From a virus: a stretch of DNA of 64,000 nucleotides. The notes below the pieces were generated by a model that saw only the letters and a list, made by a program, of their open reading frames with translations, searched no databases and had not been told where the DNA came from. Position 1 is the first letter of the stretch. Each line of letters opens with the position of its first letter. The stretch is taken from the IMG/VR virus record IMGVR_UViG_3300044797_000094, positions 1 to 64,000 of that record. One strand, given 5' to 3'. Shown one piece after another: positions 4,902-27,577 of the stretch. Made by a program: the position numbers and the translations under genes.

Positions 4902-5597
4902 ATGCCGGGAAAGAGGACAAGAAAACGAGATCGAATTTGGAAAGAACGCGAACGCGAAGCGAAGCGAGTGGAAGCCGAAAATCAAGCGGCGCCAATTCGG
5001 CCAGAAGAAATAACGACTGCTGATTTAGTCGCCGAAAAGACTGGAAAAAGCGGCGTCACGTATATTCCAGAGATCGTTTCTGGCATGGATGATGGGGAAG
5101 GGGGAAAAGTAATTCGCCCCGCCGAAATCGCGATTGCGAGGCGGGCGATTCGGGAAGACTGGCCGCTCGAACCGGAGAAGCGAAATCAGCTCATGGAAGA
5201 GTTATACAAAGTCGCGATGACGAAGCCGAAAATTGTGGCCGGCGCACCTGATCCAGGTCGGGCAATCCGGGTTTCATCGACGACCCGCGTCCTTGCGATG
5301 CGAACGCTCGTGATGGCCGATGGAATCAACGCCAAACGAGAGCAAATCGACGTAACCGCCGCCAGAGCGAATCTTGGCGTCAAAGTCAACGTAAACGTCG
5401 GCGTCAGCGTGTCTCAGCATGTTCAGGCCGCTGTCGCGGCGGAGCCGGAATATTTGGAGTGGTTGCGTGAGCGAGCCTACCCCGCAGATCGAGACGCCGA
5501 TGCTTTGGGCCGCGACGATCTCAAAACGGAAATTCTTACTGCCGACGCATGTCAGGGTGATGGACAAGGCGGTGACGGACACGATTCAGGGAATTGA
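4902..5597 (+). CDS. terS: Probable terminase small subunit
   Basis: Lies immediately upstream of and overlaps TerL; helical protein with a 'VNVNVGV' C-terminal strand. Confidence 0.55.
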   Translation: MPGKRTRKRDRIWKEREREAKRVEAENQAAPIRPEEITTADLVAEKTGKSGVTYIPEIVSGMDDGEGGKVIRPAEIAIARRAIREDWPLEPEKRNQLMEELYKVAMTKPKIVAGAPDPGRAIRVSSTTRVLAMRTLVMADGINAKREQIDVTAARANLGVKVNVNVGVSVSQHVQAAVAAEPEYLEWLRERAYPADRDADALGRDDLKTEILTADACQGDGQGGDGHDSGN

Positions 5598-6951
5598 CGG
5601 CATTCGGCGGTTGATGATTTGCATGCCGCCTCGGCACGGCAAAAGTTCGTACGCCTCTCAATATTTCCCGTCCTGGTTTCTCGGTACGTTCCCAGACAAG
5701 CGTGTGATCCTCACGAGTTATGAAGCGTCATTCGCGGCCACATGGGGACGGAAGGCTAGAAACCTTTTGGAAGAACACGGTGGACTCTTTGGCGTTCGCG
5801 TCGCATCGTCGCCCAGTGCCGCCGATCAATGGGACATCGAAGGAAATACGGGCGGGATGGTGACGGCTGGGGTCGGCGGCCCAATTACTGGCCGCGGCGC
5901 GGACTGTGCAATTATCGACGACGCCTTAAAAAACTTTGAGGAAGCGTCATCGCAACTTATTCGGGATAAGATTTGGGACTGGTGGCAGTCGACGTTGTAT
6001 ACTCGCCTTGAGCCTAACGCCGTGGTCGTGATGGTAATGACTCGGTGGCATGAAGACGACCTCTGCGGACGAATCATCGCAAGCGTCAAGTCCGGCGAAA
6101 GTGAACGCTGGCGAATGCTTCGCCTTCCAGCGATAAACAGTCAGAATCTCGCGCTATGGCCAGAGCGATATTCATTGAAGGATCTTCATCAGATTCGTCG
6201 ATCAGTCGGCCCGCATCATTGGGAAGCCCTCTACCAGCAAAATCCGACGGCGAGGGAGGGTTCTTTCTTCAAGGTCAACAAGTTCAATTATGCGCCTTCG
6301 GAACCAATTGGGCTTCGGACTGTCCGAGCGTGGGACTTGGCCGCGACGGAAGGCGACGGCGACTACACGGCGGGAGTGAGGATCGGCATCGACAATGAAG
6401 GGCGAGTTTACGTCTGCCATGTCCAACGCGGCCAATGGGCGACGGACGAACGGGACCGATGGTTGAAATCGACGGCGGTTGAAGACGGCTATGGAACGAT
6501 GATTCATTTGGCGGAAGACCCAGGCCAGGCGTCGAAATCGCAGATGCTGACGCTTTCCCGTCTACTGAACGGATTCAGCGTCAAAAGCCTTCGTGTGACC
6601 GGCAAGAAAACCACGCGGGCCGACTCGTTCAGTTCTCAAGTGAATATGGGAAACGTCTGGCTTGTGAAGGGAAGCTGGAACGGTCCCTACATCGAAGAAT
6701 TGAGGCAATTCGACAAAGGTAAAAATGATGATCAAATCGACGCATCGGCCGACGCCTACAATGAATTGACGCAAACCACAAATCAATATTACGTCGCGAC
6801 CGGAGGCGACAGAGACGACCGAGAAATTGAGCATCATCCCTATGGCGGCATGGTGGAAAAAGACGACGATTTAGAAGAAACTCCGCCTCCAAAAATAGAC
6901 AAGCCCGTTTCGTATCCGTATCACGTGGGCGGCACAGATCGAGTCTACTGA
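5419..6951 (+). CDS. terL: Terminase large subunit (true start probably about 5467-5500)
   Basis: Walker A MPPRHGKS, Walker B CAIIDD, MTRWHEDDL motif, nuclease motifs AWDLA and NDDQIDA. Confidence 0.95.
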   Translation: MFRPLSRRSRNIWSGCVSEPTPQIETPMLWAATISKRKFLLPTHVRVMDKAVTDTIQGIDGIRRLMICMPPRHGKSSYASQYFPSWFLGTFPDKRVILTSYEASFAATWGRKARNLLEEHGGLFGVRVASSPSAADQWDIEGNTGGMVTAGVGGPITGRGADCAIIDDALKNFEEASSQLIRDKIWDWWQSTLYTRLEPNAVVVMVMTRWHEDDLCGRIIASVKSGESERWRMLRLPAINSQNLALWPERYSLKDLHQIRRSVGPHHWEALYQQNPTAREGSFFKVNKFNYAPSEPIGLRTVRAWDLAATEGDGDYTAGVRIGIDNEGRVYVCHVQRGQWATDERDRWLKSTAVEDGYGTMIHLAEDPGQASKSQMLTLSRLLNGFSVKSLRVTGKKTTRADSFSSQVNMGNVWLVKGSWNGPYIEELRQFDKGKNDDQIDASADAYNELTQTTNQYYVATGGDRDDREIEHHPYGGMVEKDDDLEETPPPKIDKPVSYPYHVGGTDRVY

Positions 6952-8505: not shown

Positions 8506-8887
8506 AGACGTCAAGATCAGTATTCCCCTCAGGGAAATCATAGCCATGAACGAATCCGTAAAAGCCACGCCGGAAATACGTCGGCGAATCAAACTGAAAT
8601 CAATCCTTGATCGCTGGTCGACCTGCACAATCAGCGTGGAAGACGCGGAAACAGAATTGAGCGATCTTCTGGCGTCGAAGGAACTCGGCCCGCTCGACGT
8701 CCAAAGCGGAAAACTGAAGATCACCTCCGAGCGTGGCATGGCGTTCGATACCATGGTTGAAATCAATGGCCAATCATTCGACTGGGGCGAAAAACTGACG
8801 CTGATCATTGAGGCCGGGATGAAAAATCGTATCCTGATCGAAGGATGCCCGGTTAATTTTGACGGTCCGAAAAAGGAACAATCGTGA
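8495..8887 (+). CDS. Hypothetical protein sharing a W[ST]xCTISxED motif with the ClpN protein
   Basis: LKSILDRWSTCTISVEDAETEL versus LRSLLTKWTACTISLEDFNTEM. Confidence 0.55.
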   Translation: MSYKDVKISIPLREIIAMNESVKATPEIRRRIKLKSILDRWSTCTISVEDAETELSDLLASKELGPLDVQSGKLKITSERGMAFDTMVEINGQSFDWGEKLTLIIEAGMKNRILIEGCPVNFDGPKKEQS

Positions 8888-10680
8888 GTGCCACGACGCC
8901 ATATCCGTTCATCGAACCAACGGGCGTCTACGGCTGGCCAACACAATTCATGCCGGCGTCGACCGCAGTACTCGACTGGAACTACCTTGACGATTTTAAC
9001 CCGTCAACAATCGCGGCGGTTCCGGCTCAAGGGTCTGGTTCCTCCATTTTCTCATCGCCGGATGAATATGAACCGGCATCGTTTGTCATCGTGGCGGCGT
9101 CTCAGATGGATGACGTTGTGGTCTCTGTCTCTGATCTCGGCAATGGCGGTGATACAATCCCGTCCGAGAATGTCACGATTCGTCGCGTCGTACGAACTCC
9201 GATGCGGAATCTCTACACTGATGCGGCCCATCTGACGACGGTTGGGCGATTTTTGCCCACATGGTCGGCTCTCACGATTCCCGCTGGTGAGTTTCGCCAG
9301 GTATGGCTGACTGTCCACGTGCCGCCGGGAACGAAGGCTGCAACCTACGCCGGGACGGTCAGGATCAGTTCGTCTCAGGGCTCGATCAATTGGCCGCTGT
9401 CCGTTGAAGTCCTGCCGATTCAACTTCTCAGCGATCCGGGCAAGACGCTCGGAATGCAATACAACCTGCAACAGCGATTGGCCGATGTCAGAACGGGCGC
9501 GGCGACGACGGAATTGATAACGCAGGAAATTGCCGATCTTGCGGCGCATGGCGTGACGTCGATCGTGCCGAGCCTGCAGATCGATTTCTTCAAGAATTCT
9601 TCCGGCGAGCCTTATTACGATCTCACGAACTTCGTGACGGGAATGAATCTCCTGCTAGACGTGGGGATCGAATGGACTGCGATCGTTGTCCTGCCGAACC
9701 TGAACGAATTGGCTCTGTTGTTAGGTCATACCGACGTGTTCGATCCGACGGCGGGAACAATAGGGGACGGCGCTTCGTTGGCGGCGGATGCGACGTTCCA
9801 AATGATTGCGAAGGCGGCGATCCAGGCTTTGCACGGAACAATCAGCGGCCTGAAGCTCTCGTCGAAACAGACATTCGAGGTGATCTATAAGAATCTGGAC
9901 GAGATCTTCGACGACCAATTCGACGGTTCGCAGGCCCCTTTATACGTTCAGTACGCCAAAACATGTCAAAATGTACCGGGATTGACGCTTGGAACGACGC
10001 TTTCCACCAGGAACGCCACAGAGATTTCGGAACTAACGACTGTCGCTCCCTACGTCGCCGTGCCGATCAATCAGGGCTTTACATTTGAATGGTATCTTGC
10101 CACGCCAGGAAGCTCGGTGCAGACGTATCTCAACTTCCTGAAAGCCATGAAGCAGACGGCGTGGTTCTACCATAACGAACGCGGGGCGTATCATACGCCT
10201 GCATGGAAGCGGATCATCAACGGCGTCTACTTCTGGTCGATGCCGTTCGCGTGCCATATTCCGTGGTGCTATCAATACGACGAAGTCGCGAACCCCTTCG
10301 ACGCGAGCGCCGGTGACAAATTCAATGACTTCGGGTTCTCGTTTTCCAATGCGCCAGGGTCGACGACGTTCGTGCCGACGCGAAGCTGGGAAGCCATGCG
10401 TGAAGGATGGGACGACGTCCGGTATTTCCACACGCTTCAACAAGCGATGGCGACGCCGGGAATTTCAGCGGAGAGCCTTGCGTCCGCGCATCAGTTTTTC
10501 TCCAGACTCCAGGCGTTAATCGAGAGTGTAGACCTGGCAGGATACGAGCCGGAGGCGGGACTCGCGAAGGAATCGCCAATCATATCGTGGCTCGCAAGCA
10601 GGATGACGGGGGCTGATTGGCAGTTACTGAGAAAAGAGGCGGCATATTTGATCGTCGAAATACAAGGGTCCGGGACATGA
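8884..10680 (+). CDS. Glycoside hydrolase-like protein (GH123/DUF4091-like architecture)
   Basis: EYEPASF N-domain, 'QVWLTVHVP....ATYAGTV', and C-terminal 'PTRSWEAMREGWDDVRY'. Confidence 0.7.
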   Translation: MSATTPYPFIEPTGVYGWPTQFMPASTAVLDWNYLDDFNPSTIAAVPAQGSGSSIFSSPDEYEPASFVIVAASQMDDVVVSVSDLGNGGDTIPSENVTIRRVVRTPMRNLYTDAAHLTTVGRFLPTWSALTIPAGEFRQVWLTVHVPPGTKAATYAGTVRISSSQGSINWPLSVEVLPIQLLSDPGKTLGMQYNLQQRLADVRTGAATTELITQEIADLAAHGVTSIVPSLQIDFFKNSSGEPYYDLTNFVTGMNLLLDVGIEWTAIVVLPNLNELALLLGHTDVFDPTAGTIGDGASLAADATFQMIAKAAIQALHGTISGLKLSSKQTFEVIYKNLDEIFDDQFDGSQAPLYVQYAKTCQNVPGLTLGTTLSTRNATEISELTTVAPYVAVPINQGFTFEWYLATPGSSVQTYLNFLKAMKQTAWFYHNERGAYHTPAWKRIINGVYFWSMPFACHIPWCYQYDEVANPFDASAGDKFNDFGFSFSNAPGSTTFVPTRSWEAMREGWDDVRYFHTLQQAMATPGISAESLASAHQFFSRLQALIESVDLAGYEPEAGLAKESPIISWLASRMTGADWQLLRKEAAYLIVEIQGSGT

Positions 10681-11179: not shown

Positions 11180-11440
11180 AAACGTTTCTGCCTCAAAACT
11201 ACCCCGGTTGCCTAAAAAGTCAGGGTTTGGAAGAGGTTTTAAGGCAAAGCCCGATCGTCAACCTGTGCAAGCCGCGATCAAGAACGCGCTAATGAAAAAC
11301 CGATGTCCATTAAATCTCGATGATACAAAAAAGGAATAATCATGTGCGGAATGGGATATTGGAACGGGGAAGGATTCAAGCCGGCTGAGGCACGAGCGAA
11401 AATCGCCTTTCTCGCGTTTCATGATGAAAAAGGGTCGACC

Positions 11441-12190
11441 ATGTATGAGAGCTGGACCGACAGATCCCGTAAAGTTATGCAATTGGCGAATCAAGAAGCC
11501 CGGCGATTCAACCACGAGTACATTGGCACCGAGCACATCTTGCTTGGCCTGGTCAAGGAAGGATGCGGCGTCGGGGCGAAGATTCTGGAAGGCCTTGGCG
11601 TCGATATGCAAAAGGTCCGATTTCAAACCGAGAAGATCGTCGGCTCGGCGCCTGATCACATAATCATTGGAAATCTTCCGTTTAATGAAGACGCGATGAC
11701 GGTGATTGATCAATCCGGAAGGCAAGCTTATGTCTTGAATCACAAATACGTCGGAACGGAACACATCCTTTTAGCTATCTCGTCGTGTCCGAGTTCGATC
11801 GCTTATAAGATCCTTGTGGCTCTCGGAGTGGTCGGAGAAACAATCCAGCGTAGCATCGGAGAGATCATGGAGGCAACTCCGGCGATGCCAGGCGAAATGA
11901 CAATCAAACTTCCCGAGTATTTTTCTACCATCCTGTCAAAAACAGAGCCCGTCGCAGTCGGAATCGCCGAACCGAGCGCGAAGAAAGCGTACGAATACGC
12001 AATGAAAGCGTGGAAACAAAAGCGGCTTCAAGATCTTCGCTCTCTTCTTACAAAATGGACCGCTTGCACAATCTCGCTTGAAGATTTCAATACCGAGATG
12101 GAAAAGCTGTACGAATGGATAGACATGGATGCGGCAATCAAGCTGCCGCAGAGCGTCGCTCCGCAATCTGACGTTACGAAAATCGACTGA
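11441..12190 (+). CDS. Stand-alone ClpC N-terminal (Clp repeat) domain protein, no AAA+ modules
   Basis: MYESWTDRSRKVMQLANQEARRFNHEYIGTEHILLGL and a second repeat HKYVGTEHILLA. Confidence 0.9.
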   Translation: MYESWTDRSRKVMQLANQEARRFNHEYIGTEHILLGLVKEGCGVGAKILEGLGVDMQKVRFQTEKIVGSAPDHIIIGNLPFNEDAMTVIDQSGRQAYVLNHKYVGTEHILLAISSCPSSIAYKILVALGVVGETIQRSIGEIMEATPAMPGEMTIKLPEYFSTILSKTEPVAVGIAEPSAKKAYEYAMKAWKQKRLQDLRSLLTKWTACTISLEDFNTEMEKLYEWIDMDAAIKLPQSVAPQSDVTKID

Positions 12191-12232: not shown

Positions 12233-15200
12233 ATGGGCAAGCGAGGTCGCAGGTTCCGTAAATCCAGGCAGCAGAACGACGAACGAGAAATCGTCGCGGA
12301 AGTTCCATCGATTCAGAAGTCCTATCACGTCGCGACTTCATCGACGAGCGCCGCTTTGGGGCCTGCCTTGGCGGGTGCCTATGTCGGTGGCGGCTGGATA
12401 AGTGACCACCGTGAAGAGGTGCGTCACTTCCGGCATTTCTCGTACGTCGCAATCCACCAGATCGCGCAGCAGTTGTCGTCAGCGACAGTGACGGCGTTCG
12501 CGGACGAAGATAATCAATGGGACAATCAGTCGCGTAGAAAGTCTCTGCGGGTGAAATTCGGCAGTCTCGATCGATATAAATCCATCTACGGAAAAGAGGA
12601 CGACACATCAACCAAGGCGTTAAATTCCAGTCATGCATTGATGAAGCTGCTGGCCAAGCCGAACCCGTGGGAGTCCGGATACGACTTTCGATATCGGCAA
12701 ACAATCCAAATCAGGCTCACTGGCGCATGCTACATTTGGAACGTGCCAAGTCAATTGCGAACGCCTGACGCTCCGAATGGCGTGCCGTGCCAGCGATTCG
12801 TCATCCCAACGGCGGCCGTCACGCCGATGATGCCAACGGCGGAGTTGCCCTATGGCGGATTTCTCGTTCAGCCGTATTGCTCTCGGTACGCTCCGATCGA
12901 CGAGGACAGCGGATATGTCCGTGGCTCACCTGGCTGGATGCGGCTTCTTGGCCGAGTCGTCGATGCCCGAGAAATCCAGAAGATCGGCTATCCTCATCCT
13001 TTGTGGCTCGATGACTGGCAGAGTCCAATTGCGGCCGGTGATGCGTGGGTCGATATGGAAGAGGCCGTAAATCGAGCGAGGACGGCAAGTACACTGAATG
13101 GCGTTGACCCGTCATTGGTCTGGGAGCTGCCGCCAAACATCAAATTGTCGCCAGACATGATGGACAGGACGCAATCGGCAATCCAGAAAAAGTATGGCGG
13201 TCCATATAATCAGAGTCGAGTTTTGGTGACGGAAAGCGGAACGAAAGTCACGCCAACTTCCGGCGTCCCGAAGGACATGTGCTATCCAGAGGGATTCCAG
13301 GACGTCAAAACGGCGATTCTCTCGCTTCATGGGACGCCGCCAGTCGCGGTCGCGATGCAAGAACCTGGGGCGTACGCGTCGTACATCGCGTCCCTGAAAG
13401 CGTGGAACCACGCGACGATTAATCCACTCTGCGAGAAATTTGGAGAATCCGACACGGCTCATCTCGCTCCATTCTTCGGGGAAGGTTTGACTGTTGAATA
13501 CGAACCAAAAAGTATCCAAGATCCGGACAACGATCTAAAGCTTTTGACGATCCTGGCATCCACTAAAAAGGTCATCAGAGTCAACGAGCTTCGCGCCAAA
13601 TGCGACATGGAGCCGCTGGAAGGACCGGAAGGCGATGCATTCGTCAATGACGACCCGGTTCCAGGAATGCCGCAAGCGAAGCCAAATGGCGTGAATTTGG
13701 GCCGTCCGGACGCGGAAGCGTTGAAGCCGATAGTCAAGCCCGCTGAACCGACCACGCCATTCGAACGCGACGACGGGAACAAGTCACTTTTGGCGGCATT
13801 GGAAGGATTCCGCGAAGAGGACGAGGAATTCGTCCAGCGAAAACTCGGATCGCTGATCGAGAAAGCGGTTGCGGCGAAGCTGAAATCGCTGGAGCCCGGC
13901 GAAGAACCGCGAAAGTACGCGTCGACTCAATTCAATCTGCCGGACGAACTGGCCGATCAAGTACGGAAAATGGGCCAGAGAATCGACCTTGACGACTTGG
14001 CGGAAGACGGACTGGAGGATGAGCCTCACGTGACAATCCTTTATGGACTCACGGAATCCAGCCCCCAATCCGTCAAGCGAGCGTTGTCGGGCTTCCCTGC
14101 TGGTCGGATAGAACTTGGAATGTCGTCTCTGTTCGCGGCGAACGGAACGGAAGCGAGTCGAGGCGGTCCACAATTCGACGTCCTGAAGCTAGACGTTGGC
14201 GGCGATTACATCCATCGAATCCACGATCGACTCGCCGACAAATGCGACTACGAAGTCAGTTGGCCGCTCTACGTGCCACACGTCACGATCGGATACCTAA
14301 GGCCCGGACGAGGCAGAAAATACGTCGGCATGACGGACGTCGAAGGCGAAACATTCCTTGCCGACAAAATGACGTTCTCGAATCAGCAAAAAGACGTGTC
14401 GGTGATTCGGCTGCAACCCCCAGTCAAATCCCGCCAGTCCATCATCGAGCGTCAATTGGCTCATTCCAACGGCAACGGACGAACGAATGAATGGCACGGA
14501 AAAGCGTACGATCCATCGGAGGCGAGGGATGAAAGCGGAGAATGGACGGGGGGGGCTTCGCAACCTGATTCTAAGAAGCCCAATAAGCCGTCAAAAAACG
14601 CTGCGATCTGCCAGATGACCGGGCTGCCGTTCGAAGGTCGCGGGAAGAACCATCCAAAGCTGCGAGAAGTGCTTGACGACGCGATGAAGGATGGCGCCAG
14701 GAATCAGGTGATTGAAGCGATTAAGGACGCTAAAAACCGTGGAACGAACAACATTGAGGATTTTGTCCGCATCGCCAACGAGGCGATTGGAAAAGGCAAG
14801 GAAGATCGACGTCAGGATCGCCGCGAGCAAGTCGAATTGGAGGATGATAGGCGTCGCGAATCACGGGAACGCGACGATCTAAATCGCAAACTACGCGCCG
14901 CTGGATATCGTTGGTCGAAAGAGGGAAATCAAAATTGGCGTGAAACGCCGGAGCAAACTCCGGAATCCCACTTCGAATCCAAATGGGTGCTTCGTAATCA
15001 TCAAGGGGATGTCGTTTCGCTTGATGATGCCAAAAAAGAAATAGCATCCAACGAAAAGTCACTCGGCATGTCAACAGGCGTCGGCGACGACGGCGGCTTC
15101 GCGGTCAAGCCGGAACTGCCGGGCGAACCAAGCAACGAACAGCTCAGAACCCTCTACGGAAACTGTCCGTTCTGTTCTGGCGAAGTCACAGGTCGCGATT

Positions 15201-16597
15201 CCGATCGAATGACTGACACGTGCGATCAAGGTCACTCCTATCCATCGAAGCTGTCAATATTCGATCGACCGTCCGAAGGCGACGTCGCAACAAGCGCTGT
15301 GAATGACGGTCCAATGGGGAACCTGAATGGATTCGCCGATCCATCTGAGAAATCCAACGATCTGATCGACAATACGGAATTCGGGGCGTGCCCTCTGTGC
15401 GGCCAAGACGCGATCATGAGGGAGCGGCGATGGTACGGAAATGTGCCGTATGACTCGTGTTGCAACGGGCACGAGTTCCCGGCTGGAGTCATCGCGACTG
15501 GTGTTCCAAAAGAAAAAACAGCCAAGGCGCATCTTCAGGCTTCACGCAAGTCCTCCGCCTCTGGAGGTCAGTGGATTACACTCAAGCCCCATGGTGGTAA
15601 TGAAGGCGGCTATCTGCATGTCATGATCGATGAGAGTGGCGAGATCCAATCCGGCCCGAAGGAAATGAGAGACAAGAAGCCGAACCAGATTGAATCGCAC
15701 CGTGAGGTCAAGCAGAAACAGAAGTCTCCGCAGAGTCCGCAAGTTGGCACTCCCGATAGCCAAACGGTATCTCAGTCGGAGCAAACAAAAAAAGAATACC
15801 ACGATAGGCTGAGCAATTTGGCATCATCGCCGGTGAAAAGCAGCAAGCCGCTCAGCGGTCATCGAAATCTCAACGAAACACACATCGTGGCGCTGAAAAA
15901 CGGTGACAAGGGAGTTTGGAAACCGGCGTCAGGAGAAACATCATTCGATCACAACGGAGAGCCGATTAGACCCAACATCCCCGCTGGAACACAGCATAAG
16001 AGGGAAGCGGCCGCCAGCGCCGTTGCCGACGCTATTGGACTTCATGATCTAGTCCCAGCCACAACGCTCCGGACGATGGAAAAGGGCGAGAAGAAAGAAA
16101 TCGGATCGCTGCAACATTTCTCCGAACATGGCATTCCGGCGCACGCGACCGCTCGTGACGCGAAATATGATGGCGATCGCGATCTGGCGAGAGCCGCCGC
16201 ATTCGATATTCTGACGTCGAACACCGATCGTCATTTGGGAAACTGGATGGTCACGCACGGGCTAAGTGCACCGAACGATCTGTCATCGGAAAATAAAAAA
16301 TACAATATTGACAAGGAGCATAAGCTCGTTTTGATTGATCACGGGCTGGCATTCCCAGAAAGCGGCGGGAATGGCCGCAGTGGATTAGTCAATATGGCTG
16401 AGCACAAAAAGCTTCCGGTGCCGAATGAAGTTCTAAAATGGGATTCAGCTTCGATCGACGAGGCAATGAAAAAAAACGGCATTGAACCGCGGGCCAGGAG
16501 ACTGGCTCTTGATCGCCTGTCGCAACTCCAGTCTCTTGCGAAAGATGGCAAGACATTCGCGGATGGTTTCAATCAGGACGTGATTCACAGCTATTGA
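12233..16597 (+). CDS. Portal polyprotein: HK97-like portal + 2H phosphoesterase + two Zn-ribbons + HipA/PI3-4K-like kinase
   Basis: Portal (aa ~1-480: LLAKPNP, IRVNELR), HxT motifs PHVTILYG and PHVTIGYL, two CPxC..C..GH motifs, kinase motifs VWKP, REAAA, DRHLGN, LIDHG. Confidence 0.9.
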   Translation: MGKRGRRFRKSRQQNDEREIVAEVPSIQKSYHVATSSTSAALGPALAGAYVGGGWISDHREEVRHFRHFSYVAIHQIAQQLSSATVTAFADEDNQWDNQSRRKSLRVKFGSLDRYKSIYGKEDDTSTKALNSSHALMKLLAKPNPWESGYDFRYRQTIQIRLTGACYIWNVPSQLRTPDAPNGVPCQRFVIPTAAVTPMMPTAELPYGGFLVQPYCSRYAPIDEDSGYVRGSPGWMRLLGRVVDAREIQKIGYPHPLWLDDWQSPIAAGDAWVDMEEAVNRARTASTLNGVDPSLVWELPPNIKLSPDMMDRTQSAIQKKYGGPYNQSRVLVTESGTKVTPTSGVPKDMCYPEGFQDVKTAILSLHGTPPVAVAMQEPGAYASYIASLKAWNHATINPLCEKFGESDTAHLAPFFGEGLTVEYEPKSIQDPDNDLKLLTILASTKKVIRVNELRAKCDMEPLEGPEGDAFVNDDPVPGMPQAKPNGVNLGRPDAEALKPIVKPAEPTTPFERDDGNKSLLAALEGFREEDEEFVQRKLGSLIEKAVAAKLKSLEPGEEPRKYASTQFNLPDELADQVRKMGQRIDLDDLAEDGLEDEPHVTILYGLTESSPQSVKRALSGFPAGRIELGMSSLFAANGTEASRGGPQFDVLKLDVGGDYIHRIHDRLADKCDYEVSWPLYVPHVTIGYLRPGRGRKYVGMTDVEGETFLADKMTFSNQQKDVSVIRLQPPVKSRQSIIERQLAHSNGNGRTNEWHGKAYDPSEARDESGEWTGGASQPDSKKPNKPSKNAAICQMTGLPFEGRGKNHPKLREVLDDAMKDGARNQVIEAIKDAKNRGTNNIEDFVRIANEAIGKGKEDRRQDRREQVELEDDRRRESRERDDLNRKLRAAGYRWSKEGNQNWRETPEQTPESHFESKWVLRNHQGDVVSLDDAKKEIASNEKSLGMSTGVGDDGGFAVKPELPGEPSNEQLRTLYGNCPFCSGEVTGRDSDRMTDTCDQGHSYPSKLSIFDRPSEGDVATSAVNDGPMGNLNGFADPSEKSNDLIDNTEFGACPLCGQDAIMRERRWYGNVPYDSCCNGHEFPAGVIATGVPKEKTAKAHLQASRKSSASGGQWITLKPHGGNEGGYLHVMIDESGEIQSGPKEMRDKKPNQIESHREVKQKQKSPQSPQVGTPDSQTVSQSEQTKKEYHDRLSNLASSPVKSSKPLSGHRNLNETHIVALKNGDKGVWKPASGETSFDHNGEPIRPNIPAGTQHKREAAASAVADAIGLHDLVPATTLRTMEKGEKKEIGSLQHFSEHGIPAHATARDAKYDGDRDLARAAAFDILTSNTDRHLGNWMVTHGLSAPNDLSSENKKYNIDKEHKLVLIDHGLAFPESGGNGRSGLVNMAEHKKLPVPNEVLKWDSASIDEAMKKNGIEPRARRLALDRLSQLQSLAKDGKTFADGFNQDVIHSY

Positions 16598-16617: not shown

Positions 16618-18198
16618 ATGCAAATAATTCGAGTGTCAGGAAACATCGATGGCGAAGACGTCGATTTCGGCGACGTGTGCCTTGACGACGGCCGACTGCA
16701 CTGTCGCTCGTCGTCAGGTCTTGGCCGACGAGTTATGCAAAGCATTCTTGACGAGCCCGTCTACAGCCCTCGAGGCGACGTTACAGCAATTGAAAATCCC
16801 GAAGAATTCTTTCTGCGGCTGCCGACAACCTACCGATCGTACGCGTTGCGGGCTTACCCAATCGATGACGGCTCGGCAGATGCCGCCGAGAAGGCGTTAA
16901 AGAGGGACGTCACAGGAGAGGCAAGAGATCAAACTGGTGAATGGACCTCGGGAGGCGCTTCGACAAAGCCAAGCGTAACGGGAACTCCACGCGTTCCGAA
17001 GCCTCCGACATCGAAGCCATCAAAGAAACCAAATGCCCCGAAGATTGATGAGGATGACGAAGAATCCGGCGGTCGATTCGCAAAGCCTCCCACGCAACGC
17101 GGAGAGATGGTCTATGCCAAGCGAGTCGGCACTGGCAAGAACGTGAAGATCGTTTTGTCCGACGGATCGACTGCGCCGGAGCACATGCAAAAACTGGCCG
17201 GAAGTATTCCGCCGGACTGGAGTGAAGTCAAGATCGCAAAAGATCCGTCAATGGACGTGCTCGTTACAGCAAGAGACCCAAACGGCAATTCGAAGTTGGT
17301 TTACAACGACGCCTACGAAAAACGGAATGAGGCGATTAAGTTTGTGCGTGCGGCGGATATGGTCGCGAATCATGATGTGATTTTGAAAGAGTTCGCCGAA
17401 GATCGACTCAAGTCGGAAACGAGAGAACAAGCGGACTGTGCTCGATTAATGTTGGCCCAGGCGACGAGACCCGGCAGCGAATCTGACAACAAGGGCGTCA
17501 GCAAATACTTCGGCAAATCATTGACTCCAGATGATGTTGTTCTAACGAAAAGCGACAATCCCAAAATCGCAATCATCGGCAAGCAAACCGACGCGCAAAA
17601 GAAAGCGGCCGCCAGCGGTAAAGATGTCGTCGCAATCAATGTCAATGGATCGCTCGTCGTCATCAAGGATAAGAAAACGAAGGCGGAATTATTGAAACGA
17701 GCCAACGAAGGCGGCGACTTGCACGACTCGACGTACTGGCTGAAATCGCACGGCGCGACGACGCTGGAGGGACGACATGTCGTTGAAGCTCCGGATGGGA
17801 CGCGGCTTAAATTTGTCGGAAAAGAAGGCGTCTTCCACGATCACCTGGTCAAAGATCCGGAAGTCGCGAAGATGCTTTTGGAACGCAAAGCGAAATCCGG
17901 CGACACAGGACAGTTATTCAACACGAACGAGATCAAGCTGCGAGATTACGTCAAGACAAAAGACGGCGGCGACTTCCTCTCGAAAGATCTGCGGACCGCT
18001 CGGGCGAACATGATTGCGATCGACGAAATCAATAAGATTCCGGCCCCGAAAACAGACAAGGAATACAAAGCCAAGCGTGATCTTGTGGGGCAGCGGGTGG
18101 CGCATGTGCTCGGAAACGAAATCGCACAGAGCCTAAAGTCATACATTTCGCCGGAATTGTTCTCAGATTGGAGAATCAACGCGGGCGTGCAGGGATGA
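16618..18198 (+). CDS. DNA topoisomerase IB (bacterial/poxviral type) with an N-terminal extension
   Basis: IPPDW N-domain; catalytic set R (ATRPG), GATTL, K (FVGK), R (KDLRT), N (LGN), Y (KSYI). Confidence 0.9.
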   Translation: MQIIRVSGNIDGEDVDFGDVCLDDGRLHCRSSSGLGRRVMQSILDEPVYSPRGDVTAIENPEEFFLRLPTTYRSYALRAYPIDDGSADAAEKALKRDVTGEARDQTGEWTSGGASTKPSVTGTPRVPKPPTSKPSKKPNAPKIDEDDEESGGRFAKPPTQRGEMVYAKRVGTGKNVKIVLSDGSTAPEHMQKLAGSIPPDWSEVKIAKDPSMDVLVTARDPNGNSKLVYNDAYEKRNEAIKFVRAADMVANHDVILKEFAEDRLKSETREQADCARLMLAQATRPGSESDNKGVSKYFGKSLTPDDVVLTKSDNPKIAIIGKQTDAQKKAAASGKDVVAINVNGSLVVIKDKKTKAELLKRANEGGDLHDSTYWLKSHGATTLEGRHVVEAPDGTRLKFVGKEGVFHDHLVKDPEVAKMLLERKAKSGDTGQLFNTNEIKLRDYVKTKDGGDFLSKDLRTARANMIAIDEINKIPAPKTDKEYKAKRDLVGQRVAHVLGNEIAQSLKSYISPELFSDWRINAGVQG

Positions 18199-21656: not shown

Positions 21657-21890
21657 ATGAGCGAAGACGCGAAAAACAAAATCATCCATGTCGGCGTCAA
21701 AATGCCGATCAACATCTACGAAGCGGTGATGGCGAAGGCCAAATCGTGCGGCGTCAGTTGTCAGGCGATAATTCTTCGTGTGCTCTCTCGATCGACGAAA
21801 ACGAAATATGAGCCGCCGGTTGTCGGCAGGCCGAAGAAAGTCCCGGAACGAGGTTCAAGCCATGCGAACGAAACAAGCGGCGGAGACTGA
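21657..21890 (+). CDS. Arc/ribbon-helix-helix DNA-binding protein
   Basis: VGVKMPINIYEAVMAKA...GVSCQAIILRVL with a GRPKK tail. Confidence 0.7.
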   Translation: MSEDAKNKIIHVGVKMPINIYEAVMAKAKSCGVSCQAIILRVLSRSTKTKYEPPVVGRPKKVPERGSSHANETSGGD

Positions 21891-22359
21891 TTGCCAGATT
21901 CGTTGGATGATTCTTCGAGACATGCCAAATATTCTGGCGATTGAAAAACGTGCGTTCGACTTTCCGTGGGATGAAGCCGACTTCAAAACAGCCCTCAAGC
22001 GGCGGTCATGTATCGGGATGGTCGCGGAGGAACACGAAGCGATCGTCGGTTATTTCGTTTACGATTTGTGTGATGGATTTATTCACGTGCTCAATCTGGC
22101 TGTCGATCCGACTCATGCTCGGCGTGGAATCGGAACAAAACTCATCACTCGGTTGATTGAAAAGATCTCGCAGCAACGGCGAACGCGGATTTGCATGGAA
22201 GTTCGAGAGAGCAATCTTGGCGCTCAGTTGTTCTTGAAAAATCAAGGATTCGTCGCTCAATGCATCGTGAAGAATCATTATTGCGACACAGGCGAAGAAT
22301 CCTACAGATTTGAGTACGAGCTGCCAGAATGCGGGATTCCGACGTTTGTTAAACGGTAA
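21862..22359 (+). CDS. rimI: RimI-like GNAT N-acetyltransferase
   Basis: IRWM..RDM...IEK..F.FPW; VLNLAV.P...RRGIG; EVRESNLGAQLF. Confidence 0.85.
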   Translation: MRTKQAAETDCQIRWMILRDMPNILAIEKRAFDFPWDEADFKTALKRRSCIGMVAEEHEAIVGYFVYDLCDGFIHVLNLAVDPTHARRGIGTKLITRLIEKISQQRRTRICMEVRESNLGAQLFLKNQGFVAQCIVKNHYCDTGEESYRFEYELPECGIPTFVKR

Positions 22360-22413
22360 TTATTTGGTCCGAGATCGAGCGAAGCGGCGTGACTTGTGGG
22401 ACGTCCCTGCATA

Positions 22414-23319
22414 ATGGCTGAGTTGCCAAATAGATCCGATCTCGAAGCCCGATTCGCGAAACGGTTCGGCAGAATCGCTAGACGGCACATGCGTGAATTC
22501 CGCCAGCTTCTCGGCGACCCCCCGAACATTGACAACGTTCCTGAAGCCTTCTACGAAAAGATGCAGCGTGAAGTGGACGCGGAAACCTACGCGATTCTGC
22601 TGCTGATCTTCGACGATTCGGCGTTGCTTCACGGATGGAGCGGTCCTGATCAAGCAATGGCGTCATACGGCTGGGCGAAACAGAGAGCCGATGCGTTCTC
22701 TCAATCGTGGGCCGAGTCGACGCGAACGAAGTTGGAAAAAGGCTTTGAGAGACTGGAGGGACCAATTGCTCAACGCGAAGAAACCACAGAAGAGGCTAGA
22801 GAGTCGAATCGCACGATCCCCGCCGAACGAAAACCAGTCACTCAAAAAGAGGTCGATGAACTAATCGATTCGACATGGTCCCCGAAAACGATCGAAAGAT
22901 GGGCGGTCGACGAGACGACGACGGCGCAACACGCCGGCGGTGAAGCTGGCATTGAAGCGACGGTCGGCCTGAACGAAAACGACATTTGGCGTTGCGATTG
23001 GCGGCATGACAACGTGTGCGAGGAATGCTCGCCGCTTGACGAAAAGCCACGTTCTGTTTGGTCGGCAAAGTTCCCAGACGGTCCGCCGTCTCCACATTTT
23101 TTTTGCCGATGCTGGATTCAATATGCCCCAATTGGTGCGAATAAAAGCGCGGCGAGGAAAAGTCTTGAATCAAAAGCATTCGTCGATGCCTGGCACCGCA
23201 CAATCCCCGAAGCCGCCGAATGGCGTGCATATTGCCGAGAGAACGGCGTTGATGTCGAGAATCAAGCGAAATTCAAAGCATTCAATGTCAGCGAACCTCG
23301 GGCTTCAGATGGCGAATAG
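22414..23319 (+). CDS. MuF-like minor head (head morphogenesis) protein
   Basis: W...D.VCEEC..LD...PP.PHFFCRC motif; located between portal and protease. Confidence 0.75.
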   Translation: MAELPNRSDLEARFAKRFGRIARRHMREFRQLLGDPPNIDNVPEAFYEKMQREVDAETYAILLLIFDDSALLHGWSGPDQAMASYGWAKQRADAFSQSWAESTRTKLEKGFERLEGPIAQREETTEEARESNRTIPAERKPVTQKEVDELIDSTWSPKTIERWAVDETTTAQHAGGEAGIEATVGLNENDIWRCDWRHDNVCEECSPLDEKPRSVWSAKFPDGPPSPHFFCRCWIQYAPIGANKSAARKSLESKAFVDAWHRTIPEAAEWRAYCRENGVDVENQAKFKAFNVSEPRASDGE

Positions 23320-24032: not shown

Positions 24033-24980
24033 ATGCGGCCAATGAAAATCCTCGTCACCGGCGGAGCTGGCTACCTCGGGTCCGTGCTCGTAACGGATCT
24101 GCTGTATTCCGGATACGACGTCACAGTCCTGGATTTGTTCAAAGGCGATTCAAGCCGATCTTTGGTTGAATTGTGCGGATCGAAGGAAGTGCGGTTCACG
24201 CCGATCAAGGGGGATGTCCGCAACTTGACTGACCTCAGCGTCGCAATGGCTCGATGCGACATCCTAATTCCATTGGCGGCTATTGTTGGCGCTCCAGCAT
24301 GCGAGGATGATTGGGGCGCGACCAGCACAAACCTCAGCGCCATCGAACAAATGATTGGATTGCGATCGCAGAGCCAGGCAATCCTTTTTCCATGCACAAA
24401 CAGCGGCTACGGAATCAGCAGGCATCATGAAATCTGCGACGAAGAATCGCCACTGGCACCGATCAGTAAATATGGCAGATTGAAGGTAGCGGCCGAGAGG
24501 ATCGTCTTGAATGACGGAAACAGCGTGACATTCCGCTTCGCCACCCTGTTCGGTTGTTCCCCTCGAATGCGACTGGATTTGCTCGTCAATGACTTCGTTT
24601 ATCGGGCCGTGAAAGACCGGTCGATCATCGTGTTTGAGGGACACGCCAAGCGAAACTACTTGCACGTGCGAGATGCCTCAAGAGCCTTTCTCCACGCAAT
24701 CGAAAACTTCGAAGCGATGGAAGGCCGCCCGTACAATGTGGGCCTGTCAGACGCGAACCTGTCCAAGCTGGAGTTGTGCGAGCGAATCAAGCGACATGTG
24801 CCGGAACTGTTTTACAGCGAATCGCCGATTGGAGAAGATCCAGACAAGCGGGACTACGTCGTGTCGAACAAGCGAATTGAAGCGACTGGCTTCAAACCGA
24901 AGTATTCGCTGGACGATGGGATCAGGGAATTGATCAAGGCGTATTTGATGCTGGATGCCGCGAGATACAGGAACGCTTGA
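24033..24980 (+). CDS. NAD-dependent NDP-sugar epimerase/dehydratase (extended SDR)
   Basis: GGAGYLGS, YGRLK catalytic motif, RMRLDLLVN. Confidence 0.92.
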   Translation: MRPMKILVTGGAGYLGSVLVTDLLYSGYDVTVLDLFKGDSSRSLVELCGSKEVRFTPIKGDVRNLTDLSVAMARCDILIPLAAIVGAPACEDDWGATSTNLSAIEQMIGLRSQSQAILFPCTNSGYGISRHHEICDEESPLAPISKYGRLKVAAERIVLNDGNSVTFRFATLFGCSPRMRLDLLVNDFVYRAVKDRSIIVFEGHAKRNYLHVRDASRAFLHAIENFEAMEGRPYNVGLSDANLSKLELCERIKRHVPELFYSESPIGEDPDKRDYVVSNKRIEATGFKPKYSLDDGIRELIKAYLMLDAARYRNA

Positions 24981-25156
24981 TGGAACGCTTCAATGAGCGA
25001 GCGATCTGGGTTGCAGCGTGCGGCATTCTCATCGTCTGCAATCTCTTGCTTCGTGCCGATCTCGGAAACACTCAACATGATTTACGGATGGCGATTGAGC
25101 GTGAGCGAACATTGAATCGAATGTTGGACGTCATGATAGACAAGGACAATCGGTGA
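24980..25156 (+). CDS. 58-aa membrane protein (below the ORF-track cutoff)
   Basis: MERFNERAIWVAACGILIVCNLLL...; overlaps both neighbours. Confidence 0.55.
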   Translation: MERFNERAIWVAACGILIVCNLLLRADLGNTQHDLRMAIERERTLNRMLDVMIDKDNR

Positions 25157-26373
25157 GCCTTACAAACTGCCGCATATGCGATTCCACAAAACTGGATTTA
25201 ATCCTCGATCTCGGCATGCAACCCTGGGCAAATCACTTTCTCAAGAAAGAGGAGTGTGGCACAGAACCGAAATATCCGCTTCGATTGGTTCGTTGCGACG
25301 AATGTTCGCTCGCTCAATTGGATTTCACCGTGCCGAAAGAAACGATGTTCGTCGATCACACGTATCTGAGCGGCACGACGAAATCTCTCGGCACCCATTT
25401 CAAGAAAGTTGCGGATGATGTGGTTGATCGATTCTTCGGACCGTACCCGCGAAATCGATCTGTTCTTGACATTGGATCGAACGACGGGACACAGCTCAGG
25501 AATTACAAGGAGAAGGGATGGCGAGTCCTGGGATGCGAACCGTGCAATAGCGCGGCGAAGATGGCGAACGATTCAGGAATTCCCACATTGATCAATTTTT
25601 TCAGGGCCGGTTTTTCGGAGGCATGTGGGACATTTGACGTCATCAATGCTTCTGGCGTCCTGTTCCATTTGGAGGATCTTCATTCTGTCATGGAGGAAAT
25701 TCGCCGAGCATTGAAGCCGCAGGGGATCTTCGTCGCCCAATTCCTCTACATGCCCAGCATCGTCGAAAACTGCGCCTTCGATCAAATCTATCACGAACAC
25801 TTGCTTTACTACACGATGAAGACGTTTTGCGACCTGATTGAACGACACGGACTACACTGCTTCGATGCTTATTTTTCGCCGATCCACGGAGGGTCAATCG
25901 TCGCGTTCTGTGAGCACAAAAGCATCGACAATCTGACATCGTATCGGCTCGATCAATTGCGGGGCGGAGAAGAAGAAATTGGAGCGAACATGAAAGAGAC
26001 GTACGAAGGGTTCGCCAGGTCAGTGTTTGCGAAGCGACTTGAACAGAGGAAGCAATTAAACGGCTGGCGGATGCTGGACAAAAAGGTGTTCGGATTAGGC
26101 GCTCCGGTTAAAGGCAACACATTGCTGAATTACTGCCGAGTCGGGCCTGAATTGATCGAGTGTCTCGTCGAACGCAATTCGCTCCGTCGCGGACTCTGTG
26201 CCCCCGGCTCGCATATTCCTGTCGTGATGGAGGACGAACTGACGGAAGATCCAGACGTCTATTATGTTCTGGCGTGGAATTACAAGGGTGAGATTCTGGA
26301 ACGGTACGAGGATAAGATCGAAGCGGGCGTCGAGTTTTACTTTCCGATCAATCCGAAAGGTGTCGCATCGTGA
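25153..26373 (+). CDS. NDP-sugar C3-methyltransferase (Zn-binding N-domain + class I SAM MTase + C-MT C-domain)
   Basis: CRIC..LDLGMQP.AN, C..C.LAQL, DIGSNDG, FDQIYHEH, GAPVKGNTLLNY, LAWNY. Confidence 0.92.
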   Translation: MSLTNCRICDSTKLDLILDLGMQPWANHFLKKEECGTEPKYPLRLVRCDECSLAQLDFTVPKETMFVDHTYLSGTTKSLGTHFKKVADDVVDRFFGPYPRNRSVLDIGSNDGTQLRNYKEKGWRVLGCEPCNSAAKMANDSGIPTLINFFRAGFSEACGTFDVINASGVLFHLEDLHSVMEEIRRALKPQGIFVAQFLYMPSIVENCAFDQIYHEHLLYYTMKTFCDLIERHGLHCFDAYFSPIHGGSIVAFCEHKSIDNLTSYRLDQLRGGEEEIGANMKETYEGFARSVFAKRLEQRKQLNGWRMLDKKVFGLGAPVKGNTLLNYCRVGPELIECLVERNSLRRGLCAPGSHIPVVMEDELTEDPDVYYVLAWNYKGEILERYEDKIEAGVEFYFPINPKGVAS

Positions 26374-26651
26374 GAACAGCATTCAAGAGACCGTGGCCGA
26401 GCGATGCGGTCATCATCGTTTGCGCGTCGCCGGAAGACGCGAATCGAAGCAACATGTCGTCGATCCAGTCCGGAAAGTGTCGAGACTGCGGCGATGACAT
26501 CCTGGTCGATGGAAAATCGATCGACTCGGGGATGCGGATGAATGAGCGATGTGGAAGACCGGTCGAATTCCTGTGTGTGGATTGCGCCGTTGAATACGAC
26601 ATGCATACGATCGAGAAACTGGTTGACCATCGAAAGAAATCCGGAACATGA
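26370..26651 (+). CDS. Small Zn-binding protein
   Basis: CRDC...CVDC; coupled overlaps. Confidence 0.55.
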   Translation: MRTAFKRPWPSDAVIIVCASPEDANRSNMSSIQSGKCRDCGDDILVDGKSIDSGMRMNERCGRPVEFLCVDCAVEYDMHTIEKLVDHRKKSGT

Positions 26652-27577
26652 ACATCTTCGTCACCGGCGCAACGGGCTTCCTTGGTCGTCATCTTTGCAG
26701 GCGATTAAGCAAGGACGGTCATCGAGTCGCCGAAATCGACTCTCATCAATGCGACCTCACAAAACCGATCGAGCAACAAATCAGACTTGGCTTCGACGTC
26801 GATGTGATCTTCCATCTGGCCGCGTGGACGCAGGCCGGGGACTTTTGCTTGCATCATCCCGGAGAACAATGGCTGATCAACCAAAAGATCAACACGAACG
26901 TCCTGGACTGGTGGCGTCAGGAAAATCCAGAGGCGAAACTGATCTCGATCGGCAGCAGTTGCGCCTACGATCCAGATGGCGACATGCGTGAGGAAAACTA
27001 TCTTCGAGGAACGCCGCACCACGACCTTTTCGCCTACGCGACGGCCAAACGAATGCTCCATGTAGGGCAACTCGCGATGGAGATCCAATACGGGATGAAA
27101 TCCCTGACGCTCGCCCCGGCGACGCTCTACGGCGTCGCTTATCACACGGACGAACGTCAGCCGCATTTTATCTTCGATATCGTCCGAAAGATTCTTAGAG
27201 GAAAACAGAATGCGGAACCTGTCATCCTCTGGGGCTCGGGCTTCCAAAAGCGGGACGCGATTCATGTGGGCGACTTCGTGGAAATCGCCGTCCAATGTCT
27301 TGGGACCTCGCCGTGCGGAATTTTGAACATCGGCCCAGGTTCCGCTTTGACGATCCGCGAATACGCTCGCGTCGTCTGCGATCTTATTGGCTTTGAATCT
27401 GAAATGATTCAGTACGATCACGACGCTTATTCAGGCCAAAAATCAAAAATTCTGGACGTCGGTCGGCTTCGAAGAACGTTCCCTGGATTTCTTAATACGC
27501 CGCTGAACATTGGACTTCAGCAGGTGATTGATTGGTACAAGGCTAATCCGCAACTCCTCGCGCCGAAAGGTGAGTGA
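26648..27577 (+). CDS. GDP-L-fucose synthase-like epimerase/reductase
   Basis: GATGFLG, HLAA, GSSCAY, YATAK, WGSG.QKRD. Confidence 0.88.
   Translation: MNIFVTGATGFLGRHLCRRLSKDGHRVAEIDSHQCDLTKPIEQQIRLGFDVDVIFHLAAWTQAGDFCLHHPGEQWLINQKINTNVLDWWRQENPEAKLISIGSSCAYDPDGDMREENYLRGTPHHDLFAYATAKRMLHVGQLAMEIQYGMKSLTLAPATLYGVAYHTDERQPHFIFDIVRKILRGKQNAEPVILWGSGFQKRDAIHVGDFVEIAVQCLGTSPCGILNIGPGSALTIREYARVVCDLIGFESEMIQYDHDAYSGQKSKILDVGRLRRTFPGFLNTPLNIGLQQVIDWYKANPQLLAPKGE

Follow-up and report, generated by a model that had tools for sequence, protein, structure and literature searches.

A portal-anchored polyvalent protein of a peat-metagenome phage with a swappable cargo tail, a type-II-PI4K-like kinase and a copy of a capsid junction motif

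In phage T4, the head cargo proteins Alt and IPI-III are synthesized as separate proteins with an N-terminal targeting peptide (CTS), are trimmed by the prohead protease gp21 and are ejected together with the DNA. A class of effectors named polyvalent proteins was described by Iyer, Burroughs, Anand, de Souza and Aravind (2017, J Bacteriol; PMC5512222), who cite T4 Alt and in whose examples 2H, PBECR and InPase domains are fused to portal or MuF proteins, as in the portal-InPase protein BcepF1.124. They proposed that portal- or MuF-fused effectors are packaged and injected, that the 2H domains might degrade the nucleotides of nucleotide-activated defence systems and that the MPTase peptidase domain serves in release; InPase, LPD1 and ART-PolyVal are Pfam families named for polyvalent proteins, and a truncated protein-kinase clade and a zeta-type kinase are described in the same work. 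MuF-anchored polymorphic toxins of temperate phages were reported by Jamet et al. (2017, BMC Biol; PMC5576092). Here, positions 1 to 64,000 of the IMG/VR record IMGVR_UViG_3300044797_000094 (the window) were analysed, in which one open reading frame (ORF) at 12233..16597 (+) encodes a protein of 1454 amino acids (aa), P0001, with an N-terminal portal domain followed by a 2H phosphoesterase domain, a domain without family assignment, two zinc ribbons and a kinase resembling type II phosphatidylinositol 4-kinases (PI4K).

As in the class of Iyer et al., a portal N-terminus is joined in P0001 to several unrelated enzyme domains on one polypeptide encoded among head genes, and 2H is one of the phage-type cargoes listed by these authors; P0001 differs in that its tail holds a copy of a capsid maturation junction in place of MPTase. 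With the MuF toxins it shares the combination of a head-morphogenesis anchor and a swappable C-terminal effector, and kinases of the P0001 type occur behind MuF in IMG/VR phages, whereas the anchor of P0001 is the portal itself and at least four modules follow it rather than one toxin. The route proposed below would resemble that of the T4 head cargo in prohead loading, trimming by the maturation protease and ejection with the DNA, but loading would be by covalent portal fusion and the candidate cut site copies an HK97-type capsid junction. The portal-2H architecture and the inference of injection are already in print (PMC5512222), and since the principle was published in 2017, the gain made here is one of detail and testability and not of kind. 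Added are a case of cargo exchange in a single portal lineage, a copy of the capsid junction that resembles the cognate capsid in four related phages, and two cargo types absent from the 2017 catalogue, namely the type-II-PI4K-like kinase and topoisomerase IB. In the text of PMC5512222, phosphatidylinositol, PI3K and PI4K occur nowhere, topoisomerase occurs only in a reference title and the kinases described are distinct from that of P0001; the word kinase is likewise nowhere in the text of PMC5576092.

The record from which the window takes the first 64 kb is linear, 76,387 bp long and of peat metagenome origin, with a CheckV completeness of 72%; none of the sequencing runs listed for it was from RNA. 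The ORF runs in a continuous frame with zero internal stops from an ATG that has a Shine-Dalgarno-like GGAGAG motif 5' of it, and all features described within it lie on the + strand. All motifs that a first, sequence-only reading had listed in this ORF are present, with coordinates off by a few tens of bases at most, including the pair of H-x-T motifs of a 2H domain, the two zinc-ribbon repeats and the WITL motif treated below. Behind the portal, one polypeptide holds at least two unrelated effector domains (2H, kinase, zinc ribbons and the domain without family assignment), and the ORF qualifies as a genuine and well-formed example of the portal-anchored polyvalent proteins already in the literature; the class-specific domains (LPD, InPase, ART-PolyVal etc.) were not detected in P0001 itself by Pfam search.

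We consider that P0001 is a functional portal with about 915 residues of C-terminal cargo, which would be packaged, cut by a protease and ejected with the DNA, and assign to this reading a probability of roughly 60%. The C-terminal end of the portal, taken as facing the capsid interior, would carry the cargo, so that with 12 copies at the portal vertex the tails would come to lie inside the prohead. Conserved punctuation motifs, most clearly KSLGMS..G.DGGF, would next be cleaved by an HK97-type prohead protease, for which the ORF at 36459-37895 is the probable gene, and four modules would be set free inside the head as internal proteins: the LigT/Acb1-like 2H domain, the domain without family assignment, the double zinc-ribbon module and the type-II-PI4K-like kinase. 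These would exit the head together with the DNA. Once in the new host, phosphodiester bonds of the 2',3'-cyclic or the 2'-5'/3'-5' cyclic-oligonucleotide type, as found in immune signals or damaged RNA ends, would be hydrolysed by the 2H enzyme, while the kinase would phosphorylate some host target. Release by cleavage is needed in this scheme, because a tail tethered to the portal cannot be injected. The sequence-only reading had held that enzymes are pulled into the head by the portal, ready for injection; its core idea is backed by tail swapping, by recurrence of the kinase behind three portal families and MuF and by Iyer et al. 2017, whereas injection as stated there ignores the tether.

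In the anchor of P0001, the Pfam domain Phage_portal (PF04860) is matched by aa 124-456 (12602..13600) with an E value of 3e-26 and 92.7 bits against a cut-off of 39.1, covering profile positions 27-319 of 321 (96.4 bits in a genome-wide search), PHROG portal families match up to aa 561, and the homologous portal region extends over about aa 1-540. It is the sole portal match in the 76-kb record, which, being 72% complete, leaves the remainder of the genome outside this search. Portal and cargo are joined by a Pro-rich linker and a conserved helix-like segment at aa 471-554 (13643..13894), recognizable as conserved alignment columns.

What follows this anchor is swappable among close relatives, as judged by comparison of their sequences. 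An exhaustive phmmer search with aa 540-1454 at E<=1e-3 returned 4578 cluster representatives, among which proteins of 1000-5000 aa are numerous, and the parts of the query were mapped onto the best 150 of these. Among these 150, portal and 2H are joined at an identical junction residue in 13 representatives, with portal E values down to 1e-166, whose tails differ and whose total lengths range from 671 to 2231 aa, and at least 16 further proteins have 2H and kinase without portal. The three closest portals in IMG/VR (57, 47 and 45% identical; L005-L007) all belong to long ORFs with different cargo: portal, InPase and a metallopeptidase-like domain in one of 1083 aa, portal, InPase and topoisomerase IB in L006 (1214 aa), and portal, 2H, InPase, zinc ribbon and LPD1 in L007 (2235 aa). 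Domains of the polyvalent class are found in these relatives (InPase and LPD1 in L005-L007) and in the 2H relatives P0003 and P0004 (ART-PolyVal and DUF5661).

The kinase provides a second line of comparative evidence, since it is fused repeatedly to head anchors. Relatives of it are encoded in 97 IMG/VR contigs, usually at the C-terminal end of ORFs with a median length of about 740 aa from stop to stop. When nine such ORFs were sampled and scanned with Pfam, seven carried a head anchor, belonging to three portal families or to MuF: Phage_portal with MuF in one, Portal_Mu in two, a lambda-type portal (below cut-off) in one and MuF in three (one below cut-off); one of the other two consisted of 2H and kinase and the last was without other match. 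A Portal_Mu domain followed by a kinase of the same type is also seen in P0002. That one kinase has been fused independently to unrelated head proteins is good comparative support for its transport in the head.

A copy of a capsid site in the tail suggests how the cargo could be released. Punctuation motif i (KSLGMSTGVGDDGGFAVKPE, aa 942-963, 15056..15121), a candidate prohead-protease site, copies the junction motif KTIQGMSESIGTDGGFGVIPE of the HK97-fold major capsid protein P0154 (37953..39338, +; Pfam Phage_capsid E 2e-40, TIGR01554 E 9e-51), where it occupies aa 147-168 (nt 38391-38456). BLASTP aligns aa 931-963 of P0001 with aa 136-168 of the phage's own capsid protein (E 2e-5), the core KSLGMS..G.DGGF lying at aa 942-957, and among the ORFs of the window the pattern is present in the capsid protein and P0001 only. 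TIGR01554, the HK97 capsid model, also matches aa 838-963 of P0001, weakly (E 0.055). HK97-type capsid proteins are trimmed at the boundary of the N-terminal scaffold-like extension and the N-arm, in HK97 itself between Lys103 and Ser104; a literature search on the HK97 cut site gave nothing usable. The stretch in P0154 precedes the Phage_capsid match, which starts at aa 202, by about 50 residues and lies just inside the start of the alignment with a solved capsid protein (aa 150), from which we infer that it represents this boundary between extension and N-arm, the trimming zone. Each of the four portal polyproteins examined contains a single motif i, which was likewise found in P0005, P0006, P0009, P0012 and P0016, as compared to 0-0.1 occurrences in shuffled sequences. 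Moreover, it resembles the cognate capsid in 4/4 phages examined: capsid and portal polyprotein read KALGMSEGIASDGGFGV and KSLGMSEGIGSDGGFAV in G003, ...GMSEGIGADGGFTV and ...GMSNGVGADGGFTV in G001, with GADGGFTV common to both, and ...GSDGGFAV and ...GSDGGFTV in G002. On these sequence grounds, motif i is likely to be a cut site of the prohead protease.

The probable protease, P0155 (36459..37895, +), matches the protease part of the prohead-protease/capsid fusion model NF045541 (E 3.5e-8, aa 69-279) and, with its N-terminal part, phrog_617, and continues into an acidic, coiled-coil-like and scaffold-like C-terminal region; the assignment comes from NCBIfam and PHROG, as Pfam and PDB sequence searches with P0155 gave no match. 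A KSLS peptide was observed after its protease-like part (aa 205-208) and is present also in the homologue L084 of G003. A second punctuation peptide, motif ii (aa 756-776, 14498..14560), reads K-A-Y-D-P-S-E-A-R-D-E-S-G-E-W-T-G-G-A-S and is followed by a Pro/Lys linker. Its consensus, K-[SA]-x-D-[PV]-S-x-E-x-R-D-x-x-G-[KRE]-W-T-x-G-G, is found between domains, up to three times per protein, in P0002, P0012, P0016, P0023, P0047, P0053, P0060 and P0125, and the corresponding regular expression gave 100 matches versus 39 in shuffled sequences. Motifs ii and i flank exactly the module that equals the stand-alone protein P0093. A wider 'plug-and-cut' scheme, to which we give somewhat less than even odds, would generalize these features: any module placed behind the portal would be loaded at 12 copies and freed by means of a co-evolving copy of the capsid site and two punctuation peptides, with cargo that would include the clade of PI4K-like kinases and a virion topoisomerase IB.

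The 2H phosphoesterase domain comprises aa 555-735 (13895..14437). Its two HVT motifs (aa 599-601 and 683-685; 14027-14035 and 14279-14287) correspond to H-x-T motifs that are invariant in 13/13 aligned sequences (P0001 and 12 short relatives), the domain taken alone reaches 27.0 bits with PF13563 at a cut-off of 27, and the AlphaFold model has a 2H fold with a pLDDT (predicted local distance difference test) of 89.9. The sequence-only reading had associated this domain with Acb1, an identity that is not supported here: the Pfam Acb1 model PF23474 reaches 14.7 bits against a cut-off of 27, and LigT-type cyclic phosphodiesterases (CPDases; Z around 15) are structurally closer than Acb1 (Z 12). 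Acb1 (phage FBB1/T4; PDB 7T26 and 7T27; PF23474) shares the 2H fold and two H-x-T motifs with P0001, whose domain, of about 180 aa, exceeds Acb1 in size and includes a conserved FSSTQxNLP strand at its N-terminal end; a literature search for Acb1-portal fusions gave nothing usable.

The alternative that the 2H domain is an RNA-end enzyme, either a LigT-type 2',3'-cyclic phosphodiesterase or a Usb1-like RNase that heals or cuts RNA after attack by an anticodon nuclease or toxin, with the kinase acting as a takeover protein kinase like T7 gp0.7, is a possibility of some weight, although the odds are on the whole against it. In VIA-align, the 2H model is closest to LigT-type enzymes (drCPDase Z 15.1, TT0787 15.0, E. 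coli LigT 14.6), followed by Usb1 (13.5), AKAP18 (12.8), MHV ns2 (12.1), Acb1 7T26 (12.0, over 132/137 residues) and the penguinpox cGAMP phosphodiesterase (11.4). This order, in which LigT-type CPDases (Z 14-15) stand ahead of Acb1 and the poxvirus enzyme, is in line with an RNA-end function, but the Z score of Acb1 is lowered because Acb1 is smaller, and fold comparison does not discriminate among 2H subfamilies, which Foldseek by itself is unable to rank. Family models over the 13 clade members point in the same direction, with PF13563 matching 13/13 and PF23474 9/13 at E<=0.01, the 2H relatives P0003 and P0004 scoring 25.6 and 26.6 bits with PF23474, and an RNase-like role of portal/MuF-fused 2H domains is favoured by Iyer et al. 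(PMC5512222). On the other side, the first solved-structure match of the clade's 2H sequence profile is Acb1 (9Q2G E 1e-3; 7T26 E 0.046), and no RNA ligase partner is present among the annotated ORFs. Aa 555-735 are filed as a 2H enzyme without subfamily assignment and hence without substrate assignment.

The kinase (aa 1199-1454, 15827..16594) was described by the sequence-only reading as HipA/PI3-4K-like, of which the PI4K part stands in the form of type II PI4K and the HipA part falls. DRHLGN (aa 1332-1337, 16226-16243), DHG (aa 1369-1371, 16337-16345) and Lys1230 within VWKP are all present, and in an alignment of 12 sequences D-R-H-x-x-N (D1332-N1337) and the Asp of LID[HN]G (D1369) are invariant, with the VWKP Lys (K1230) conserved in at least 90%. 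Pfam PI3_PI4_kinase (PF00454) scores 35.3 bits against a cut-off of 27.1, and a kinase profile retrieves type II PI4K from PDB with E 3.8e-9. The structural model (pLDDT 82) superimposes on type II PI4-kinases with Z 21.6-23.8 and a root-mean-square deviation of 2.7-4.0 A over 232-247 of 265 residues at 18-21% identity, the best match being PI4KIIbeta (Z 23.8, VIA). By comparison, FAM20 (15.8), CtkA (15.3), HipT/HipA (10.9-12.7), CotH (10.8) and class I/III PI3K/PI4K (about 10) are more distant. The HipA_C and HipA_2 models (13.3 and 13.0 bits versus cut-offs of 30.5 and 27) and the HipA Z scores do not support a HipA-type toxin kinase. The type II PI4-kinases (human PI4KIIalpha/beta; PDB 4HND, 4WTV and 9HHM) share the DRHxxN and D-x-G motifs with P0001, whose kinase differs from them as a minimal 255-aa domain with FAM20 and CtkA (Z about 15) as next neighbours; since these are protein or sugar kinases, its substrate is left unassigned. 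No match to the kinase was obtained by tblastn in 50,697 GenBank phage records, and neither the kinase alignment nor the portal+2H alignment found relatives in one genome each for 185,579 prokaryote species; a literature search on phage type II PI4K gave nothing usable. The kinase is a compact relative, in a prokaryotic virus, of type II PI4-kinases with all catalytic residues kept, and because it is fused repeatedly to head anchors, it represents a candidate family of virion-delivered, host-modifying kinases.

Several observations weigh against a cargo that is cut free and injected. The closest structural relatives of the kinase are eukaryotic lipid kinases, whose substrate phosphatidylinositol is absent from most bacteria, the 2H domain stays below the cut-off of the Acb1 model, and MPTase, the release device of Iyer et al. 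2017, was not found in P0001. Bare K-[SAT] dipeptides, tried as marks of cut sites, are not enriched (21 observed versus 19.4 expected), so that the cut-site idea is carried by the longer motifs only. In the probable source run of the record, moreover, Logan contigs break at 13927-13952, which encode the conserved STQFNLPDEL in the first strand of the 2H domain, and leave 15670-15701 uncovered, directly after the WITL module.

Some of these points, together with others, would fit a tail that stays covalently bound to the portal and is not injected; its role would be either enzymatic, prior to assembly in the cell that makes the virions, or structural, within the head at the portal vertex. The Pfam search of the ORF found no dedicated peptidase domain, cleavage is a prediction, and motif i, for which BLASTP establishes similarity to the capsid protein and not a function, could serve as a docking peptide that fixes the tail to the shell instead of as a cut site. 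Long C-terminal portal extensions can also be structural, the P22 barrel being an example. A permanently bound tail is nevertheless unlikely, since the intact catalytic motifs in two unrelated enzymes and the swappable set on one portal lineage suit effectors better, both this kinase and 2H domains are also attached to MuF and to three portal families unrelated to one another, and the conserved punctuation motifs delimit modules that exist also as stand-alone proteins.

The two contig breaks also bear on whether the ORF itself is authentic. Were it an assembly chimera, k-mers shared at conserved motifs would have linked modules of co-occurring related phages, and the tail of the true portal would be different and perhaps shorter; neither break is bridged in the source run or in a second sample, and the exact P0001 protein is carried by one contig only. 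Against this, the depths of the three Logan contigs are similar (9.6, 11.2 and 10.8), and the second peat sample, from another study, contains, at depth 2-4, pieces with 100% identity to portions of the portal, 2H, zinc-ribbon, kinase and topoisomerase regions, its contigs covering 18 of 30 bins, with no listed piece spanning 13927-13952 or 15670-15701. L007 and no fewer than 13 independent cluster representatives have the portal-2H junction at the identical residue, the kinase is often fused to a portal or to 2H in other proteins, and codon usage is uniform, the three ORF segments correlating with window genes at r 0.86, 0.83 and 0.68 (control segments 0.50-0.83). A chimera is in our estimation highly improbable. 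The WITL-to-kinase joint is the least secured part of the assembly. Contig breaks at module boundaries could reflect co-existing phage variants with other tails or weak assembly points; were tail variants to co-exist in the sample, breaks at such boundaries would also be expected.

Should cutting and ejection of the tail take place, ready-made enzymes would be delivered before phage gene expression, when abortive-infection and cyclic-nucleotide defences trigger. The copy of the capsid site would provide a concrete, testable rule for release of portal cargo, and might be usable for loading chosen proteins into HK97-type heads.

The remaining modules lie between the 2H domain and the kinase. Aa 791-937 (14603..15043), the putative helical domain of the sequence-only reading, have zero Pfam matches and correspond end to end to the whole of the stand-alone 144-aa protein P0093 (45% identity, E 3e-35), by virtue of which they are regarded as an autonomous module; an ESM Atlas search with aa 741-960 gave no usable match and a search for shorter homologues of aa 741-1190 found none. 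Zinc ribbons 1 (GNCPFC...CDQGHSYP, aa 976-1004, 15158..15244) and 2 (GACPLC...CCNGHEFP, aa 1051-1083, 15383..15481), with the patterns CPFC...C..GH and CPLC...C..GH, are the two G.CP.C...C..GH.[YF]P repeats of the sequence-only reading and are homologous to each other (BLASTP E 4e-6), Pfam zinc-finger matches being all under the cut-offs. They are followed by punctuation motif iii, the WITL module (RKS...WITL...HVMIDESGEIQSGP...KKP; aa 1105-1150, 15545..15682), whose core, WITL with HVMIDESGEIQSGP, at aa 1114-1142 (nt 15572-15658) is the WITL...HV.IDE.G.I..GP motif of that reading. In its general form of about 40 aa, KS-x-RWITI...G-x-HV-x-ID-x-DG-x-I-x-x-GP...KK, it recurs in relatives, with 19 copies in 13/153 related proteins and up to three per protein. 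One WITL module is present near the N-terminus of a 1715-aa 'putative helicase' of Thermus phage Lalka27b (L004, PQ109077.1; 8767-13914), encoded between tail and baseplate genes; judged by its sequence, this protein of a cultured phage resembles virion-associated polyvalent proteins, and might serve as an experimental model for the WITL module.

At the nucleotide level, the 11-19 kb region around the ORF contained no Rfam family on either strand, nor were promoter- or terminator-like sites in excess there on either strand. The ORF contains 10 in-frame heptamers of the slippery -1 type, as compared to about 6 by a rough chance estimate made without a dedicated tool; among these, A AAA AAC at 14593-14599 falls in the Lys-rich linker after motif ii and A AAA AAA at 15787-15793 in the Lys-rich linker before the kinase. 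No frameshift is proposed on this basis.

Directly behind the ORF, a topoisomerase-IB-like gene (16618..18198, +; Pfam Topoisom_I 33.6 bits) encodes an unmatched N-terminal part of about 90 aa, motif ii (aa 94-117), a Pro/Lys linker and the catalytic region. The catalytic part has a homologue in L006 (E 2e-17), and because that topoisomerase is fused to a portal, the protein encoded at 16618..18198 is probably a companion cargo and may be carried in the virion.

Upstream of the portal ORF, TerL is encoded at 5419-6951, and between the terminase and portal genes a 598-aa protein (8884-10680, +) has a GH123 N-terminal-like beta-sandwich domain (E 8.5e-9). The product of the gene directly upstream of the portal gene (11342-12190, +) has 282 aa and two Clp_N repeats (E 3e-25) and is an unusual neighbour in a head module. 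A weak MuF gene, the protease-like gene and the capsid gene are all located downstream of the portal ORF. A GNAT acetyltransferase gene (21778-22359, +) precedes the MuF-like gene (22396-23319, +; PF04233 E 4.9e-4, below cut-off); immediately before its stop codon the MuF-like gene encodes a truncated motif ii, KAFNVSEPRASDGE. The stretch from the portal region to the capsid genes also contains genes for two NAD-dependent sugar epimerases/dehydratases and a C-methyltransferase (24033-27577, +), which constitute a nucleotide-sugar pathway within the head module.

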